The notes beneath the pieces were generated by a model, which worked only from the letters and a program-made list of their open reading frames with translations, ran no database searches and was not told the origin of the DNA. A stretch of 64,000 bases of DNA, taken from Nitrospirota bacterium (GTDB taxonomy: Bacteria; Nitrospirota; UBA9217). Every line of letters starts with the position of its first letter. Position 1 is the first letter of the stretch. Below, in pieces: positions 1,535-64,000 of this stretch. The position numbers and the translations under genes were made by a program. The stretch lies in NCBI GenBank assembly GCA_963741205.1, contig CAVUHW010000045.1, forward strand, positions 27,646-91,645. The letters are read 5' to 3'.

Positions 1535-3170
1535 GTGCGCCTAGCATGGGCGCGATCTTAGAGGTGGAAGTCCTCTAGCGAGTTGACCACAACGAGCTAA
1601 GCGAAGCGCAACTGCGTGAGGGTGACCAAACGTGGGGAGGAAGCGTGGAGCGAAACCGTGAGCCAATGAAGAAAAATCAGATATGAGGCGCTGGCCTTTT
1701 AGGGCAAACAGGCACATCACTGCAAAGCTCTTGTGGTCAATGAAAAAGCTGCGTAGATCTGGTGGTTGTACGGTGAAGGATCGCGTTCTTACCTGGGGAG
1801 ATCTCGCCTTATGCCTGAAGGGGCAACGACCTCAAGTCCGGAGCGAGAAGTCAGCAGCGGCCGTAATAACTGGGCAACCGAGCGAAGGGCCAAACGAGAA
1901 GGAGAGTCCGAAATTATGACGACTTGGACGCGCATCGCATCAGAAGCCCGGAAAATCGGGGCGAGTCGGAGTTAGCGCAGGTGAAGCCGGCGCTGATGCG
2001 ACTGCGTGATGAAGCTCGCCCGGCGTGTCAAGCAACAAAAGGACTCAGGGCGAGATAATCTGGTACAGCAGGTTCTCTCGCGCGAGAACATGTTGGCGGC
2101 GTGGAAACGCGTCAAAGCCAACAAGGGAAGTGCGGGCGTTGATGGGCTCTCAATCGAGCAAACCGAAGAATATCTCAAGGAACACTGGCCGCGAAATTCG
2201 AGTGGAACTTCTTAGCGGAGTTTATTGGCCTCAAGCCGGTGCGCCGCGTGGAAATTCCAAAACCGACAGGCGGTAAGCGGGAATTGGGGATACCGACGGT
2301 CGTTGATCGGGTGATACAGCAGGCCTTGCTACAAATCCTGCAACCCATGATTGACCCAACCTTTTCCGAATTCAGCTACGGCTTCAGACCGGGGCGAAGT
2401 GCACATGACGCAGTGCGACAAGCACAGCGATATGTGGCGGAAGGCTATCGATTTGTTGTCGATGTTGATTTGGAAAAATTCTTTGATAGGGTCAACCACG
2501 ACATTCTCATGGACCGGCTCGCAAAAACGTATTGCTGATAAAACCGTACTGCGGTTAATTAGGCGCTACTTGCAAGCTGGAATCATGGCAAATGGGGTGG
2601 TGCTAGATCGTTCGGAGGGCACCCCTCAGGGTGGTCCGCTGTCGCCGCTCGTAGCGAATGTGTTGCTCGACGAAGTAGACGAAGACCTGCAGCAACGGGG
2701 TCATCGTTTCGCTCGATATGCTGATGATTGCAACGTGTATGTGCGCAGTCAGAAAGCTGGCGAGCGCGTACTTGACTCCTTGAAGAACCTATATGCAAAT
2801 CTGCACCTTCGGGTAAACGAGAAGAAAACTGAGGTGGGACCGGTCTTTGGCCGTAAGTTCCTTGGCTATTGCCTACGGCGATGGTCAAAGGGAACGGTGA
2901 AAATCGCCGTTGCCCCCAAGGCAATCGACACGTTCAAGCAGCGCATACGGTTCATCACACGCCGTGTCGGTGGGTGCAGCATGATTCAAGTCGCCGAGCA
3001 GATGCGGGCATATCTGCCGGGGTGGAAAGCCTACTTCCGCCTCGCGCAAACGCCCGAGAAATTCAAAGACTTGGATTCATGGATGCGACACAGACTTAGA
3101 GCGATACAGCTTAAGCACTGGAGGCGGGGACCCACGATCTATCGGGGACTACGTCGTCTTGGGGCAGTCC
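1535..3170 (+). mobile_element. Group II intron, class IIC (attC-targeting-like), 3'-truncated
   Basis: Starts GTGCGCCTAGCATGGGCGC directly after a DNA hairpin. About 380 nt of ribozyme sequence with typical CTTACCTGGGGAGATCT and GAGAAGTCAGCAG motifs, then the RT ORF. No domain V/VI seen downstream. Confidence 0.88.
1916..3170 (+). CDS. ltrA: Group II intron reverse transcriptase/maturase (frameshifted, C-terminus lost)
   Basis: AWKRVKANKGSAGVDG, RVEIPK..GGKRELGIPTVVDR, GTPQGGPLSP, YADD at 2717-2728, maturase GWKAYF. Breaks off after YRGLRRLGA. Confidence 0.92.
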
Positions 3171-23751: not shown

Positions 23752-23828
<77 letters not shown>

Positions 23829-23839
23829 GTTTAATCACA

Positions 23840-23919
23840 TTGCGGAATGCGGATTGCGGAATGCTGATTGAAAAAACATGAGCCTTTAATCCGAAATCGG
23901 CAATCCGAAATCCGAAATA
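23840..23919. repeat. Inverted 7-mer arrays (TTGCGGA / TCCGAAA) between tRNAs
   Basis: TTGCGGAATGCGGATTGCGGAATGCTGATT versus AATCCGAAATCGGCAATCCGAAATCCGAAAT. Confidence 0.75.
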
Positions 23920-23923
23920 GAAT

Positions 23924-24000
23924 GCGCCTGTAGCTCAGTTGGATAGAGCAACAGCCTTCTAAGCTGTGGGCCATGGGTTCGAATCCCGTCAGGCGCACCA
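23924..24000 (+). tRNA. tRNA-Arg(TCT)
   Basis: ACAGC-CTTCTAA-GCTGT anticodon arm, GTTCGAAT, CCA end. Confidence 0.96.
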
Positions 24001-24038
24001 TTCATTAAGATTGTAGACTGCGGATTGCGGATTGCTGG

Positions 24039-24067
24039 TTGACAAATTGTCGTAGACGCTATAGAAT
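24039..24067 (+). promoter_or_regulatory. Sigma70 promoter for tRNA-His
   Basis: TTGACA-17 bp-TAGAAT. Confidence 0.8.
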
Positions 24068-24100
24068 AATCTTCGTTTTTGAAATCCGGCATAATATCAC

Positions 24101-24177
24101 GGTGGGCGTAGCTCAGTTGGTAGAGCTCCAGGTTGTGGCCCTGGTGGCCGCGGGTTCAAGCCCCGTCGCTCACCCCA
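24101..24177 (+). tRNA. tRNA-His(GTG)
   Basis: G-1, CCAGG-TTGTGGC-CCTGG anticodon arm, CCCA end. Confidence 0.96.
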
Positions 24178-24187
24178 ATTTCCTTTA

Positions 24188-24218
24188 GAGACGGCCGATC
24201 TGGCCGTCTCAGTTTTTC
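24188..24218 (+). terminator. Hairpin/terminator after tRNA-His
   Basis: GAGACGGCC-GATCT-GGCCGTCTC then AGTTTTT. Confidence 0.6.
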
Positions 24219-24232
24219 TAGAGACAGTTACT

Positions 24233-24309
<77 letters not shown>

Positions 24310-24407
24310 TGATCCGCAGTGCGAAATGCGGAAGGCGGAGTGACGCAACTCGTCAATCGTGAGAAGAGTGAATCGGCAATCGTCCATCATCCATCGAAGT
24401 CGAGAAT

Positions 24408-24484
24408 GCGCCCGTAGCTCAGCTGGATAGAGCGTTGGCCTCCGAAGCCAAAGGTCGTGGGTCCGAATCCCGCCGGGCGCACCA
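24408..24484 (+). tRNA. tRNA-Arg(CCG)
   Basis: TTGGC-CTCCGAA-GCCAA anticodon arm, T-loop reads GTCCGAAT, CCA end. Confidence 0.92.
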
Positions 24485-24542
24485 ATTATTAGCACTATAT
24501 CAAGAACAGGGCAAACCAGTTTTTTAGTTCTCACATGATTGT

Positions 24543-25025
24543 CTATTCAACGCGGAACTTCACGGATGCGAGTGAGCAGGCGCTCGATTCGTAGGTCTGC
24601 CCGCCGCTTTCCCCGCAGGCATGGACGTAGGTTACCCTGATCCTGTCGGCCAGGGCCGCATCCCCAAAAACTTTGATCTTGAACATTTCGGGGCCGCCTT
24701 TAAAACCTCCGGGAGAAAGAGAGACGAGACACAACTCCTGACCGTGCAGCGATCCGGCAATAAGCGTTCCCTCACCGCTGAGCTTTACTTCCCCGTCACT
24801 CGAAGTCTCCGTAGTCATGCCGTCTGGTAGTTGAAGGATTATCTTTATCGCTTCAACAAGGGGTCCTTCATTCAGCCCCATGACAGAAACAGTCATGACG
24901 TGAGATTCCGTCGATTTCATGACCTGTCCTGGCGTAGCAGATGATGCAGTGCTATGGTCCCGCAATCCTCCGCACCCCGCCAAAATCACCGCAACCGATG
25001 CCAAAAGAACGACCTTCCGTTTCAT
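24543..25025 (-). CDS. Hypothetical lipoprotein (possibly cohesin-like beta-sandwich)
   Basis: MKRK + hydrophobic stretch + LAGC lipobox, GGAGG RBS. Confidence 0.7.
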   Translation of the reverse strand: MKRKVVLLASVAVILAGCGGLRDHSTASSATPGQVMKSTESHVMTVSVMGLNEGPLVEAIKIILQLPDGMTTETSSDGEVKLSGEGTLIAGSLHGQELCLVSLSPGGFKGGPEMFKIKVFGDAALADRIRVTYVHACGESGGQTYESSACSLASVKFRVE

Positions 25026-25237
25026 ATCCCAACCCTCCTGGATTAGTATAATAGATTTTCCCGAATTTCGCTATACCGCAATCGGGTATTTCTAGTGGTA
25101 TATTGGCGATCAGAAATATCCTTGACCTCTGATCACGGTTTGTGCTACTATCCCGCCTGGTTTTGACATAATTCGACCGAATTCAATAATGGCCGGCTAA
25201 AAAAAACAATTAGTTATCGACGGGAGCCGCAACTGAA

Positions 25238-25266
25238 GACAAAGGTCGCGTCCGAATCCCGCTGGG
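25238..25266 (+). repeat. Degenerate direct repeat of tRNA-Arg(CCG) 3' half (att-like)
   Basis: CAAAGGTCGC--GTCCGAATCCCGCTGGG versus CAAAGGTCGTGGGTCCGAATCCCGCCGGG at 24449-24477. Confidence 0.7.
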
Positions 25267-25384
25267 ATCCGCAGAGGGAGAGAACCGAGGGACGACGGAC
25301 TAGCGCTGTAGTTGAATCCTTTCTCGTTCCGTGAGCGATGTGGACGGTCATCCTGCATTCGTCATGGTTTTATTCAGATTTATG

Positions 25385-25413
25385 TTGCATACCTCCTCAG
25401 AGATAAGTATAAT
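25385..25413 (+). promoter_or_regulatory. Sigma70 promoter for tRNA-Lys/tRNA-Leu/tig
   Basis: TTGCAT-17 bp-TATAAT. Confidence 0.7.
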
Positions 25414-25454
25414 GTAGCCGTTTTGCATCTGGTACTCTCACAATTAATTACGAT

Positions 25455-25530
<76 letters not shown>

Positions 25531-25625
25531 GAACAACAACAGGGGAGCAGTGGGTTATGGGCAGGAATCCATGAGAGTGGGTGCTGCACAAGGCTCACTG
25601 CTTTCTTATTATCTAATGGCGTGAA

Positions 25626-25708
25626 GCGAGAGTGGCGGAACTGGCAGACGCGCCAGACTTAGGATCTGGTGGGTGACCGTGGGGGTTCAAGTCCCCCCTC
25701 TCGCACCA
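25626..25708 (+). tRNA. tRNA-Leu(TAG)
   Basis: CCAGA-CTTAGGA-TCTGG anticodon arm, variable arm, CCA end, upstream of tig. Confidence 0.95.
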
Positions 25709-47489: not shown

Positions 47490-49014
47490 TTATCTCAGCA
47501 CGCCAGCATCGATCAGAAGAGAACACGCAGGCGTAGGAGAAGAGGTCGCCGTAGCGGGTGTAAAAGGTCTTTTCCGTCCCGGGACGTGAGCGTGCGCGTC
47601 AGGTCGCGCCTCGGTGAAGATCCCCGATGTGTCCAGGATCCTGCCCTGCGCGTCGATAAATCCCGAGATGCCGGTGTTCGCGGCGCGCGCAACGGGCACG
47701 CGGTTCTCGACCGCGCGGAAGACGGCCATGGAAAAGTGCTGGTAAGGCGCCGCCGTCCTGCCGAACCATGCGTCGTTCGTGACCGTCGTGATCATGGCGC
47801 TCCGTCGTTGACGAACCTCCTGACGAGGTCGGGGAAGATGATCTCGTAGCAGATGACGGTGCTGAGCTTCGTTTCCTTGCGGTCGTTCGGTCCCCGTAGG
47901 GGACCGTCATGACGGTATACTCATCCCCGGCCTGGAAATCTCCGATCGCCTGCACCATTTTCTCGACAAAGAACAGGATTTTCTTGAGCGGCACGTATTC
48001 GCCGAACGGCACGAGATGTATCTTGTGGTACGTCGCCTCGACGCGCCCGTCTCCCGAGAGCAGGAACGCCGAGTTTCTGCCGATGATGTGCCTGTTCGGT
48101 TTTACTTCGTAGGTCGGGCTGCCGAAGAGGAGCGGGACGTGGTTCTGTTTCACGAAGGCAACGAGGTCCGTCGGTCAAGGCCTGGTCGCCCGGGTTCCCG
48201 CCGTTAAAATAGAACGGCGTCGCGGTCTCGGGCCAGATCACGAGGTCGGGATGCTGCGTGAGCGCCTCCCGGGTCAGACGCTTATATGTTCCGATCGCTT
48301 CCGCCTGGTAGGCGGGGTCCCACTTTTTGTCCTGTTCGATGTTCCCTGGACGACCGAGATAGTTATCCCGCCGGCCTGCTCCGGGCGCGCGAAGCTTGAC
48401 GAACCCATATCCCAGAACGAGGAGCAGAACAAGCCGCGCGATCGCAACGGCGGAGATAACTTTTCCTGTTCATGATGAATTCGCGCCAGCCGCCGCGTTC
48501 ACCAGCACGATCAGGAATGAGACGCCGTATACGCCGGTGATGTCCGCCGCCTGGATGACGGGCAGGGCGCTGTACTGCGAGTAGCCGAGCAAGGACCAGG
48601 GGAAGCCGCTGAACACATAGGTCCGCGCGAGCTCGAGCGCGGTCCAGAGGGCGGGCGCGGCGATGAAGAACAGAGCGCGGCATGGTTGTTCCGGAGGTGC
48701 ACGGCAGCTGCGCCGAAGAGCGCGGGATAGAGCGCCAGATAGGCGCAGAGGAGCAGGGTAATGAGCGACGCCGGCACGAGCGGGATGCCGCCGTAAAAGT
48801 GCACGGAGTTCGTGACCCAGTGAACGGTGCCGATGAAATAGAAGATCCCGGCGAGTCCGCCGAGCCAGAACCCGTTCTTTACGCTCTGTCCTTCGAGCGA
48901 GATGAACAGGGGCATGAGGGCGATCCAGGCAAGAAAATGGAGATCGATTGCGGGGAACGCAGCGGCAAGGAGGATGCCGGAGACAGCCGCAAGCGAAGCG
49001 GTGCGGAAGTTCAT
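47490..49014 (-). CDS. lnt: Apolipoprotein N-acyltransferase, multiple frameshifts
   Basis: GFPW..LGY, WPET, KIHLVPFGEYVP, ICYE, TNDAWFG, RAVENR, RAANTGIS. Confidence 0.93.
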
Positions 49015-49015
49015 G

Positions 49016-49410
49016 CTATTTCGCCGCCTTCTGCTCCTGCATCCACTTGAGGAGTCCGTCTTTCATGCCGTTGTTGAGGCTCTCGTCTGCGGAGGGGGAG
49101 AGGGCCGCATGGTAGGCTGCTGGACGAGGTTTGCGGAAGGCGGTTTTTTGCGGGCCGGGGGACGGCCCTTTACCGGCGCCGGCCTGGTTGACGACCGGCT
49201 GCCGTTTCTGTTCTTCCTGCGGGAACGGCGAAGGGAGGAGATCGCATGGCGGTACAGGATCTCCCGTTTCTGGCCTTCCATGACGACGACGTAGCTGTCA
49301 AAGGCCTTGATCTTTCCTGAAATGCGGATTTTGTTCTGGAGAGTCAGGGTCACGGCGGTCTGTTCGGTCATATACGTATTCAGCATGCGGTCGAAAAGAT
49401 TTGTTTCCAT
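49016..49410 (-). CDS. Hfq/Sm-like protein with basic C-terminal tail
   Basis: VTLTLQNKIRISGKIKAFDSYVVVM...ILYRHAISS parallels Hfq Sm1/Sm2. Confidence 0.8.
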
Positions 49411-49422
49411 GGGATCATACCT

Positions 49423-49894
49423 CTACCGATTGATCGTCGTGATCGAGTGTTTATAGTACAGGTGTTGTCTGCCTCCCTCTTTGAGCAGGACGGTGAAGTT
49501 GTCGTAGGCTTCGATGTGCGCCTTGATCCGCTGCCCGTTGATCAGGTACAGCGTCAGGAGCTGATTCTCTTTGATGGCCTTGTCGAGAAATTCCTGCTGA
49601 ATGTTCGGCTGGCCGGTGGGGCGCGGGGCCTCTCGCAGTCCGCATCGCGTTGGTGCGGAGGAAGGATCGAGGAGAGGGTGCGGCGAGGTGAGATAGGAGA
49701 TTTCCTGCTTCAGGAGGGTGACGATCGTTCCGTTTACTTCAAGGTTGATTTCATAGCGGCCGATATCACGGATGGTCCCTTCATGTTCGGTTTTGTTCAT
49801 CTGGCCGATATCGGAGCTTGACACCGCTTGCTAGCGCCTGCGACAGGAACTGCGGTTCGATGGCTTGCCTTGACTCTTCCTTCAATACTTCCAT
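49423..49894 (-). CDS. Tandem two-domain Hfq-like protein (frameshift near 49805)
   Basis: Domain 1: IEPQFL...EGTIRDIGRYEI...LLKQEISY. Domain 2: NIQQEFL...YLINGQRI...YDNFTVLL...YYKHSITTI. Confidence 0.8.
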
Positions 49895-49994
49895 CGAGAA
49901 AATCATAGCTGAAATTAAGATCTTTTGCAAGAAATTTCTCTCGCCGGCCCGCGTGCGCGGCGCCATGCATCGCGCGCCTGCACCTTTTTCCTTA

Positions 49995-50023
49995 TTGACA
50001 TTTGACGGCGTATGCCCTATTAT
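49995..50023 (+). promoter_or_regulatory. Sigma70 promoter of queD (probably near-leaderless mRNA)
   Basis: TTGACA-17 bp-TATTAT, ATG 8 nt later, no Shine-Dalgarno. Confidence 0.7.
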
Positions 50024-62639: not shown

Positions 62640-64000
62640 CTATGAACTCTCGGCGGAGCCTGTCCCGCTTGCGGAAAGCTCCAAACCGCCTTCTTCCTTC
62701 CACACCCTCTTTTCTATCTCTTGCAATAACATCCCCGAACGTAGCCCGGATTGATCGCCGAGCAGACCACGCCCCCAAACCGGACTGCGATGGCTTTTGC
62801 CCAGAGCGGATTCACGAGATCGACCTTGTTCAGCACGACAAGCTGGGGTATGTCGTCGAGACCGATTTCCTGCAGCAGGTTATTCACCGAGTCCATCTGC
62901 TGCTCGAAGCGCGGATTGCTGAAGTCCACCACGTGCAGGATCAGGTCCGCGTCCTGCATCTCGTCCAGGGTCGCGCGGAAGGCCCCGAGCAGGTCCTTCG
63001 GCAGGTCCTTGATGAATCCCACCGTATCGGTAATGACCACCTCGCGGTCGCGCGGGAAGCGGAGCCTCCGCGTGGCCGTGTCGAGCGTGGCAAAGAGGAG
63101 GTTTTCGGCCTTGACCTCCGACCTGGTGAGCGCGTTAAAGAGCGTGGATTTGCCCGCGTTCGTATAGCCCGCGATAGAGACGATGGGGATATCGCTCTTC
63201 ACGCGGCGTTCCCGCCGCTGGTCCCTGGCTTTCCCGAGGGCGTCGAGCTGTTTTTCCAGCCTCCGGATCTTGTCCCGCGCGCGCCGCATGTCGACCTCGA
63301 GCCGGGTTTCGCCTGGGCCCCTTCCGCCGATGCCGCCCGTGAGGCGCGAGAGGGCCGTCGAACGCTCCGAAAACCTGGGCAGCCGGTACTTGAGCTGGGC
63401 GAGCTCCACCTGCACCTTGCCGTCGCCGCTGTGGGCCCGCCGCGCGAAGATGTCGAGGATGAGCTGGGTGCGGTCGATGACCCGCATCTCGGTGATGTCG
63501 CCGATGGCCTTGACCTGGGCAGGGGTCAGGTTCTGGTCGAAGACGATGAGGTCCGCGCCCAACTGCTGGGAGCGGATGATGAGTTCCTTGAGCTTTCCCT
63601 CCCCGAGAAGATATTGCGGATTGATGTCGTGCAGCCGCTGGATCACCGTATCGAGGACCGTGATGCCGTCCGTGCGGGCGAGTTCCTTGAGTTCCTCGAT
63701 GGACTCTTCCTGTTCATGCTTGCTCTTTTTCGATACGCTGACGAGAATGGCCCGGTCTTTTTTCGCGACCTCGACGGCGGCCTGCGCCCGTTCCATCTGG
63801 CGCTCGATGTCGGCGATGAATTCGGCGGCGTCTATATTAGCCCGTACACGGATTGCGGCGGCAGGACCTCGTAGAGTTTTTCTTCGGAGTTCGGCGGAAC
63901 GAGGTGGGCGATGGAGATATTGCCGGGCAGTCCGTCAGCCCGTGCGGCCAGGGCGGCGATCATGTCCAGCCGGAGCAGCGCCAGGTCCGTAAGGTCTTCC
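62640..64000 (-). CDS. hflX: GTPase HflX, long form (5' end outside window, frameshifted)
   Basis: DRTQLILDIFA.RA, GRGPGET, GYTNAGKST, LFATLD, DTVGFI, NKVD. Confidence 0.96.

Follow-up and report, generated by a model that had tools for sequence, protein, structure and literature searches.

A Tandem Hfq Gene with a Conserved Hfq-Type Partner in a Subset of Nitrospirota: Candidate Components of a Mixed Sm-Type Ring

Introduction

In textbooks, bacterial Hfq represents the Sm ring made of identical subunits: it is a homohexamer, usually encoded in the order miaA-hfq-hflX. Rings that combine diverged paralogues are seen as an elaboration of eukaryotes, with some hints of them in archaea. Here we analyse a locus of an uncultured Nitrospirota bacterium in which two adjacent genes encode three non-identical Hfq-type modules. 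Gene 1 specifies a two-domain (tandem) Hfq protein with an N-terminal domain (N) and a C-terminal domain (C), while gene 2 specifies a third Hfq paralogue (its Hfq domain is called G2 below) with a long tail. Both genes lie on the minus strand between positions 49016 and 49894 of a 64,000-nucleotide stretch of contig CAVUHW010000045.1, hereafter the window. An earlier note, made from the letters of the window alone, had proposed three divergent Hfq/Sm domains in these two genes and a heteromeric ring composed of them.

Two-domain Hfq proteins have been described in Zymomonas mobilis (ZMO0347) and six other Sphingomonadales, and the available part of that paper raises the question of whether three such chains suffice for a ring (Yang et al. 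2010, PMC2877685). Gene 1 shares with them the two Hfq domains per polypeptide, and a ring of fewer than six chains has been proposed there as well (PMC2877685, available part). What sets the Nitrospirota system apart is that the first domain is remodelled, that gene 1 has a conserved partner and that a canonical hfq is present separately; the available part of PMC2877685 describes no partner gene for the Zymomonas-type protein, whereas the Nitrospirota protein has the conserved gene 2. Against the NCBIfam family of sphingomonad tandem Hfq (NF010691/PRK14091), for which the cut-off is 270, gene 1 scored 41.5 bits and gene 2 28.1 bits, and gene 1 is therefore not a member of this family. To our knowledge, the two-domain protein is the only Hfq of the organism in Zymomonas and the Sphingomonadales. 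The similar tandem proteins P0012-P0026 of the protein library have two near-canonical domains, in contrast to the remodelled N domain of the Nitrospirota protein.

Among the heteromeric eukaryotic Sm/Lsm rings there are hexamers of the (three paralogues)x2 type, such as Lsm(6-5-7)2 and Sm(F-E-G)2 (Mura et al. 2013, PMC3710371, available part). The diverged paralogues in fixed order are a common feature, and the predicted (N-C-G2)2 arrangement mirrors (three paralogues)x2 (PMC3710371, available part). In contrast to Sm/Lsm proteins, the Nitrospirota sequences are Hfq-type, two of their modules are covalently fused and the assembly is known from prediction alone. The Pfam Sm-Lsm family PF01423 (cut-off 23.4) gave 14.4 bits with gene 2, below the cut-off, and no match with gene 1.

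With canonical Hfq (PF17209, TIGR02383) all three modules share the fold and the predicted ring contacts of strand 4 to strand 5, and C keeps the Q, Y, D, aromatic and YKH residues. The differences are the three non-identical modules, two of them fused, the position beside lnt and not miaA, the altered pocket and rim residues of N and G2, and the canonical copy retained elsewhere in the genome. The Hfq2 of Burkholderia, with its long tail, and Hfq1-3 of Bacillus anthracis are likewise extra hfq genes beside a canonical one, with one paralogue bearing a long C-terminal extension; these are single-domain proteins from separate loci, and the available parts of the sources describe neither a fused degenerate domain nor a conserved gene pair. 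A literature search, with subscription journals outside its coverage, returned no paper on tandem or three-module Hfq in Nitrospirota. What appears to be new here is the combination, within one set of Hfq paralogues, of a degenerate domain fused to a second one and a partner that looks obligate; the assembly state and the function of this system are predictions.

Results

The mechanical listing of open reading frames (ORFs) gave two minus-strand frames at the locus, 49423-49824 (133 amino acids) and 49063-49410 (115 amino acids), each covering part of its gene. All motifs quoted by the earlier note were recovered in their translations, LLKQEISY, NIQQEFL, YLING and YYKHSITT in the first and NLFDRML and YRHAISS in the second. 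In the three-frame translation, gene 1 (49423-49894, minus strand) starts at the ATG at 49894 (MEVLKEESRQAIEPQFLSQALASGVKLR; MEVLKEES...GVKLR), continues in another frame from about 49811, near which there is an extra base, and ends with ...YYKHSITTINR, making about 157 amino acids if read through. Gene 2 (49016-49410, minus strand; METNLFDRML...YRHAISSL) switches frame near 49230/49231, where a base is missing, and has the C-terminal end ...LNNGMKDGLLKWMQEQKAAK, making about 131 amino acids if read through. Given read-through of one single-base indel per gene, positions 49016 and 49894 are the true stop of gene 2 and the true start of gene 1. The two genes are separated by 12 nt, the GAGGT Shine-Dalgarno sequence of gene 2 overlaps the gene 1 stop, and the gene 2 stop (49016-49018) is located one base before the ATG of lnt at 49014.

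In DNA alignments with five relatives, the window has a single extra A in gene 1 (about 49811) and lacks a single base of gene 2; the contig of a related organism in the sole sequencing run found has a G inserted behind 49231. Intact orthologues of gene 1 in relatives are one open frame of 153-164 amino acids and, judged by these frames, the fusion of the N and C domains is real. The concern of the earlier note that polishing could abolish the fusion is thus reversed: the relatives are intact (about 160 amino acids), so polishing should restore it. Nor is the observation due to chance, because intact orthologues of both genes were found in dozens of related genomes. Two other interpretations of the frames were tried and rejected. 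The single open frame in relatives rules out N and C as two separate genes, and a programmed frameshift is ruled out by shift sites that are non-slippery and missing from the five aligned relatives.

Taken alone, the N-terminal domain (49669-49894, minus strand; a helix and five strands) stays below the gathering score of Pfam PF17209: 18 of 26 orthologues gave weak matches with E up to 1, the best of them with E 5.3e-5, the N domain of the first member had no Hfq match in the Pfam search, and the matches of this domain to DUF5608 and YqbF_HeH were below cut-off and dismissed. When a profile of the 26 N domains was compared with PDB, the 31 best matches were all Hfq, the best being Aquifex aeolicus Hfq 5szd (E 2.9e-6, 62 residues), and hhalign of the N domains against the C domains gave a probability of 88% (E 3.1e-6). 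The AlphaFold2 (AF2) model of gene 1 was computed from a 26-row alignment whose first row was the L005 orthologue, 80% identical to the window protein. It contains the helix and five strands twice, with a predicted template modelling score (pTM) of 0.75 and a predicted local distance difference test score (pLDDT) mostly >90 (about 95-97 in the N domain). Residues 8-77 of this model resemble B. subtilis Hfq 3hsb best (Z 9.5, root mean square deviation 1.1 A, 67 residues), and all of the 50 matches listed were Hfq, with Z 8.1-9.5. By sequence profiles and predicted structure alike, the N-terminal domain is a genuine though remodelled Hfq fold, as the earlier note had surmised when it called this part a degenerate Sm domain.

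The C-terminal near-canonical Hfq domain (49426-49605, minus strand) carries the Q of IQQEFL, the Y of LYLING and YKH; gene 1 residues 75-131 gave 68.8 bits with PF17209 (cut-off 27 bits; intact orthologue 65.2 bits), gene 1 exceeded the cut-off of 61.7 of the NCBIfam equivalog TIGR02383 with 75.6 bits, and the Q, D and YKH of the C domain are invariant in 26 orthologues. Both domains of gene 1 have thus been confirmed by profile comparison, C through Pfam and NCBIfam and N through the PDB profile and hhalign. They are joined by a Pro/Ala-rich linker (49606-49668, minus strand), which has a pLDDT <50 at residues 79-99 of the orthologue model and is little conserved in the alignment. The Hfq domain of gene 2 (49225-49410, minus strand) has YRH for YKH, L at the Q8 position and T at the Y25 position. 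Its residues 7-62 gave 53.3 bits with PF17209 (intact orthologue 55.1 bits) and gene 2 gave 53.8 bits with TIGR02383, below the cut-off of 61.7. In the AF2 models the N-terminal helix and the five strongly bent antiparallel strands of the Hfq/Sm fold are present in N, C and G2. Pfam/NCBIfam, profile and structure matches thus bear out that the two neighbouring genes contain three Hfq domains which have diverged from one another.

The AF2 model of gene 2 consists of the Hfq domain (residues 1-62, pLDDT 93-95), a disordered tail and a helix at residues 115-129. The basic Pro-rich tail (49079-49224, minus strand; pLDDT 45-50) is frame-shifted in the window; in 25 orthologues it comprises 41-62 residues with 6-12 K+R, 1-8 D+E and 5-17 P. 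The terminal helix (49019-49078, minus strand; LNNGMKDGLLKWMQEQKAAK in the window; pLDDT 66-75) is conserved, W123 being invariant and L120 nearly invariant in the 25 orthologues from four families, and it had no match in a Pfam search. A membrane anchor is a weak reading of this helix (hydrophobic moment 0.35-0.73, mean hydrophobicity about 0), and any role ascribed to it is presumptive. The earlier picture of a third Sm domain that lacks the proximal-face Gln, bears a basic tail and runs into lnt agrees with the L at the Q8 position, the tail composition and the 1-base gap.

The distribution of the pair was studied in 401 sampled Nitrospirota genomes, which were scanned with the N-domain profile (E up to 1e-5). 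The profile matched 74 genomes, or 73 after removal of G293, whose match (26.8 bits, 84-amino-acid frame) looks like canonical Hfq. The N domain was present in 58 of 63 genomes of family f1, plus the window's own genome, in 9 of 12 of f3, in 3/3 of f6, and in the single genomes of f7 (1/1) and f14 (1/1); f9 (0/76), f10 (0/28), f11 (0/35) and f17 (0/40) had no match to it. The completeness of the five f1 genomes that gave no match is 65-89%. Matches of at least 85 bits to the gene 2 profile were obtained in 72 genomes. When the two match lists were compared by hand, gene 2 was seen to follow the N domain immediately, on its contig and strand, in 69 of the 73 N-domain genomes, with a start about 480-860 nt past that of the N domain. 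The gene pair is conserved in at least four families. In three genomes (G005, G122, G251) the N-domain and gene 2 matches were at contig ends, in G057 (77% complete) gene 2 was below the detection threshold, in G212 the gene 2 match was partial, and in G069 gene 2 was found at a contig start without gene 1.

The pair coexists with a canonical hfq. In the source genome the latter (111 bits) lies beside miaA on another contig (C34), and a second, canonical-type Hfq match was found in 55 of the 59 f1 genomes carrying the pair. The pair itself does not have the miaA-hfq(-hflX) context and sits between queD and lnt; hflX, which the earlier note had seen about 13 kb away, was located at about 62804-63754 of the window. 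A search with the gene 2 profile (E up to 1e-12) yielded no Hfq-type match in f9 (0/76), f10 (0/28), f16 (0/14) and f17 (0/40), families whose sampled genomes may lack hfq or carry a very divergent one.

In a quick maximum-likelihood tree of 94 domains and 71 columns, N, C and G2 each fell on one side of a branch, with approximate likelihood ratio test (SH-aLRT) values of 97, 87 and 99, respectively. Each of these groups includes members from f1, f3, f6 and f7, which argues that the triple arrangement predates the split of these four families. Of nine loci covering both domains, eight are Nitrospirota metagenome-assembled genomes (MAGs) and the ninth is a contig filed as Betaproteobacteria. 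This contig, L040 (JBLMWN010000285.1, 5282 bases), belongs to a 'Betaproteobacteria bacterium' MAG, its tandem-Hfq gene is 78% identical to the Nitrospirota one, and it is probably mis-binned. Among 1.84 billion proteins at 50% clustering, about ten clusters align across both domains, and clustering at 90% gives 564 clusters with E of at most 1e-10. Of these, the 120 that were listed are 157-189 amino acids long with one Pfam domain each, and the named ones are called 'host factor-I protein' or 'RNA chaperone Hfq'. Public records label these proteins simply 'Hfq' or 'host factor-I' and show one domain, so that database users see neither the extra domain nor the partner gene.

The residues of the modules were mapped against the genome's own canonical Hfq, using the E. 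coli numbering (Q8, Y25, D40, F42 and Y55-K56-H57). At the Q8 position the canonical protein has Q, C has an invariant Q, G2 has L and N has an invariant E. The F39-D40-x-F42 segment reads FDNF in canonical Hfq, YDxF in C, FDSY in G2 and I-G-R-Y in N, and Y55-K56-H57 reads YKH, YKH, YRH and L-K-Q in the same order. The proximal-pocket residues (Q8, F42, Y55-K56-H57) are therefore Q, F and YKH in C, L, Y and YRH in G2, and E, Y and L-K-Q in N, the latter having E, G, Y, K and Q at the Q8, D40, F42, K56 and H57 positions. The distal Y25 corresponds to Y in canonical Hfq, Y/F in C, T in G2 and G in N, and the basic rim (RKxK), present in the canonical protein, is represented by one K/R in C and absent from G2 and N. 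Across four families E13, G39, G45 and K62 of the N domain are invariant and L17 and Y47 nearly so. As these conserved residues fall on Hfq pocket positions, the N pocket looks changed, not abandoned. The specialised RNA faces of the earlier note are deduced solely from the residue substitutions between the modules.

The ratios of nonsynonymous to synonymous substitution rates (dN/dS) were calculated pairwise for 12 same-genus orthologues, with saturated pairs dropped and 37-57 of 66 pairs used. They amounted to 0.18 for the N domain, 0.57 for the gene 1 linker, 0.04 for the C domain, 0.08 for the G2 domain, 0.27 for the G2 tail and 0.06 for the G2 terminal helix; by this measure the modules are under purifying selection.

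A complex of two gene 1 chains (alignment of 26) and two copies of gene 2 residues 1-68 (alignment of 25) was modelled and reached an ipSAE interface score of 0.85, the best of three controls being 0.00; 58 of 80 solved complexes attain the mark used for this score, as do 2 of 110 mismatched pairs. Three runs of this 2+2 job had at least 92% of contacts in common, with a partner pLDDT of at least 85. In the model, strand 5 of C (156-159) pairs with strand 4 of G2 (51-53), and strand 4 of N (58-61) of the other chain pairs with strand 5 of G2 (58-61). Because the C-G2 and G2-N strand contacts both form, the model is a closed six-membered ring N-C-G2-N-C-G2. It supports the binding of gene 1 to gene 2 products without demonstrating it.

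Upstream of gene 1, a consensus scan detected a sigma-70-type promoter TTGCAA-N17-TATGAT (49902-49930, minus strand) that ends 7 nt before the ATG. By script, a TTGC(A/C)A-N17-TATNAT box was found 7-8 nt 5' of the start in 21 of 27 rows (18 f1 loci, 2 f6 loci and the window), and the same arrangement was found by eye in L014. As no Shine-Dalgarno sequence was seen upstream of gene 1 and the promoter ends so close to the ATG, the gene 1 mRNA is probably leaderless or nearly so. An internal start at MNKTEHEG was considered and ruled out, since the conserved promoter directly precedes the MEV start, and the 28 residues upstream of MNKTEHEG are conserved as protein in all families and form the helix of the fold.

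Downstream, lnt (apolipoprotein N-acyltransferase; 47490-49014, minus strand) is directly coupled to gene 2 and is spread over several frames in the window. A tblastn search with the Lnt of two relatives spans 49014-47464, with 35% identity in one frame, and intact LNT_N + CN_hydrolase proteins follow gene 2 in four relatives (f1, f3, f6, f7). The upstream neighbour of the pair differs among genomes (queD, Fur, a VTT-domain protein, PBP1).

Discussion

Starting from three Hfq folds, a conserved gene adjacency, purifying selection and a coexisting canonical hfq, we regard it as roughly 45% probable that a subset of Nitrospirota has inherited vertically, in addition to canonical miaA-hfq, a lineage-specific operon of Hfq paralogues, and that the proteins of this operon form a mixed RNA-binding ring. 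The mixed ring is suggested by the complex model, and RNA binding is conjectured from family membership and residues. The mixed ring is favoured because three modules per gene pair make six per two pairs and because the adjacency is near-universal. The operon would comprise the promoter, the tandem-Hfq gene, the tailed Hfq gene and lnt, and both proteins would be made from one transcript in roughly equal amounts. Through the usual strand-4 to strand-5 pairing they would close a ring of six domains in the order N-C-G2-N-C-G2. This Hfq-like particle would bind RNA and have nucleotide pockets of three kinds that are not equivalent. Of the three modules, only C retains all of the proximal residues (Q, aromatic, YKH) and the distal Tyr, and the basic G2 tails would add unspecific RNA affinity. 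More tentatively still, the system may be a natural hetero-oligomeric bacterial Hfq ring, an (N-C-G2)2 pseudo-hexamer acting as a second specialised RNA-binding particle beside the canonical homohexamer. In that case bacteria would have arrived independently at a ring made of paralogues like that of Sm/Lsm proteins, and one fusion would already have become fixed.

Several points weigh against the mixed RNA-binding ring. Of the two rings that the earlier note had considered, the one of two tandem chains and two partners was returned closed by a single complex model with an ipSAE of 0.85; the confidence of a model is not evidence of assembly, and 2+2 was the sole stoichiometry modelled. The 2+2 job may have passed through its likeness to the many solved Hfq hexamers, and the tool was calibrated on single-chain pairs, whereas this job contains multiple copies with their own alignments. 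Paralogues may also lie side by side simply because they arose by tandem duplication. Since N is without Q8 and H57 and G2 without Q8 and Y25, canonical U-tract and A-rich binding cannot be assumed, and the tight conserved coupling to lnt is left unexplained by an RNA-chaperone role. The sequencing-run search for the locus found no RNA run containing it, and the frame-shifted window copy of both genes could be inactive if the indels are real.

Separate homomeric rings are a less probable alternative to the mixed ring. The tandem protein would form a trimer, as put forward for the two-domain Hfq of Zymomonas, a pseudo-hexamer with alternating N and C, gene 2 would form its own homohexamer, and the two would be neighbours through tandem duplication. 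The (N-C)3 trimer draws on the precedent of partnerless two-domain Hfq proteins elsewhere, including the clusters P0012-P0026 with two near-canonical domains, and the pTM of 0.75 of the monomer model suggests packing of N with C within one chain. Yang et al. (2010, PMC2877685, available part) raise the question of whether three copies make a ring. Against this reading stand the retention of gene 2 directly downstream in 69 of 73 genomes and at least four families, often in overlapping or closely spaced frames, and the 2+2 model, the sole stoichiometry run, which closes the ring with high confidence.

Some other Hfq-like paralogues act via protein partners, and it is conceivable, though quite improbable, that the Nitrospirota proteins have left RNA chaperoning and use their pockets and the terminal helix to bind a protein or some other ligand, perhaps in connection with lnt or the envelope. 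Such a role would agree with the loss of the Q8 position in N and G2 and of H57 in N, with the rim arginines missing from both, and with the conserved C-terminal helix, which has an invariant Trp and no Pfam family. The conserved gene order points in the same direction: in three distant families the pair is followed by lnt and a release factor, and in f1 by lnt. The C domain, however, retains every canonical residue under very strong purifying selection (dN/dS 0.04), a basic tail rich in Pro is what nucleic-acid-binding proteins typically have, and the low hydrophobicity of the helix (mean H about 0, muH 0.35-0.73) makes it an unconvincing membrane anchor.

The broken frames of the window copy are part of a wider pattern. 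From about 46.5 to 50.4 kb, single-base indels disrupt recO, lnt (several frames), both Hfq genes and queD (three frames), with long intact ORFs on both sides. As lnt, queD and recO are broken as well as both Hfq genes, this patch is likely a poor local consensus of the assembly. The possibility that the frameshifts are real and the genes decaying into pseudogenes, in keeping with one indel in each Hfq gene, several in lnt, two in queD and a broken recO, is very improbable, given that the patch takes in lnt, which is normally indispensable in diderm bacteria, that outside the indels the genes are 60-80% identical to relatives with every invariant residue retained and no in-frame stops, that the patch is flanked by long intact ORFs in a MAG of 50 contigs and 84% completeness, and that a local consensus error is the simpler reading. 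The only run recovered by the sequencing-run search is a DNA run containing 6% of the sampled words, and its contigs belong to related organisms, 85-95% alike.

From the point of view of Sm ring evolution, a conserved and strongly selected three-module operon in at least four Nitrospirota families makes the step from homomeric to heteromeric rings testable with two small, easily expressed proteins. A ring whose proximal, distal and rim sites differ by subunit would also be useful to dissect the number of sites that Hfq needs.

In the representatives L034 (f3), L036 (f7) and L037 (f6), the tandem-Hfq gene, the tailed Hfq gene, lnt and a class-I release factor are kept as a block, whereas in the window recO converges on lnt at the place where f3, f6 and f7 have the release factor. 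On the other side of the locus, a near-consensus promoter TTGACA-N17-TATTAT (11/12 matches; 49995-50023, plus strand) is located directly 5' of the divergent queD, back to back with the gene 1 promoter. An Rfam scan near the locus gave nothing at gathering thresholds. Elsewhere in the window, domains D1-D4 of a group II intron (Rfam RF02001, 105 bits) were found at 1616-1788 (plus strand), and the intron-encoded protein may be among the long ORFs behind them; seven tRNA genes are clustered at 23752-25705 (plus strand).

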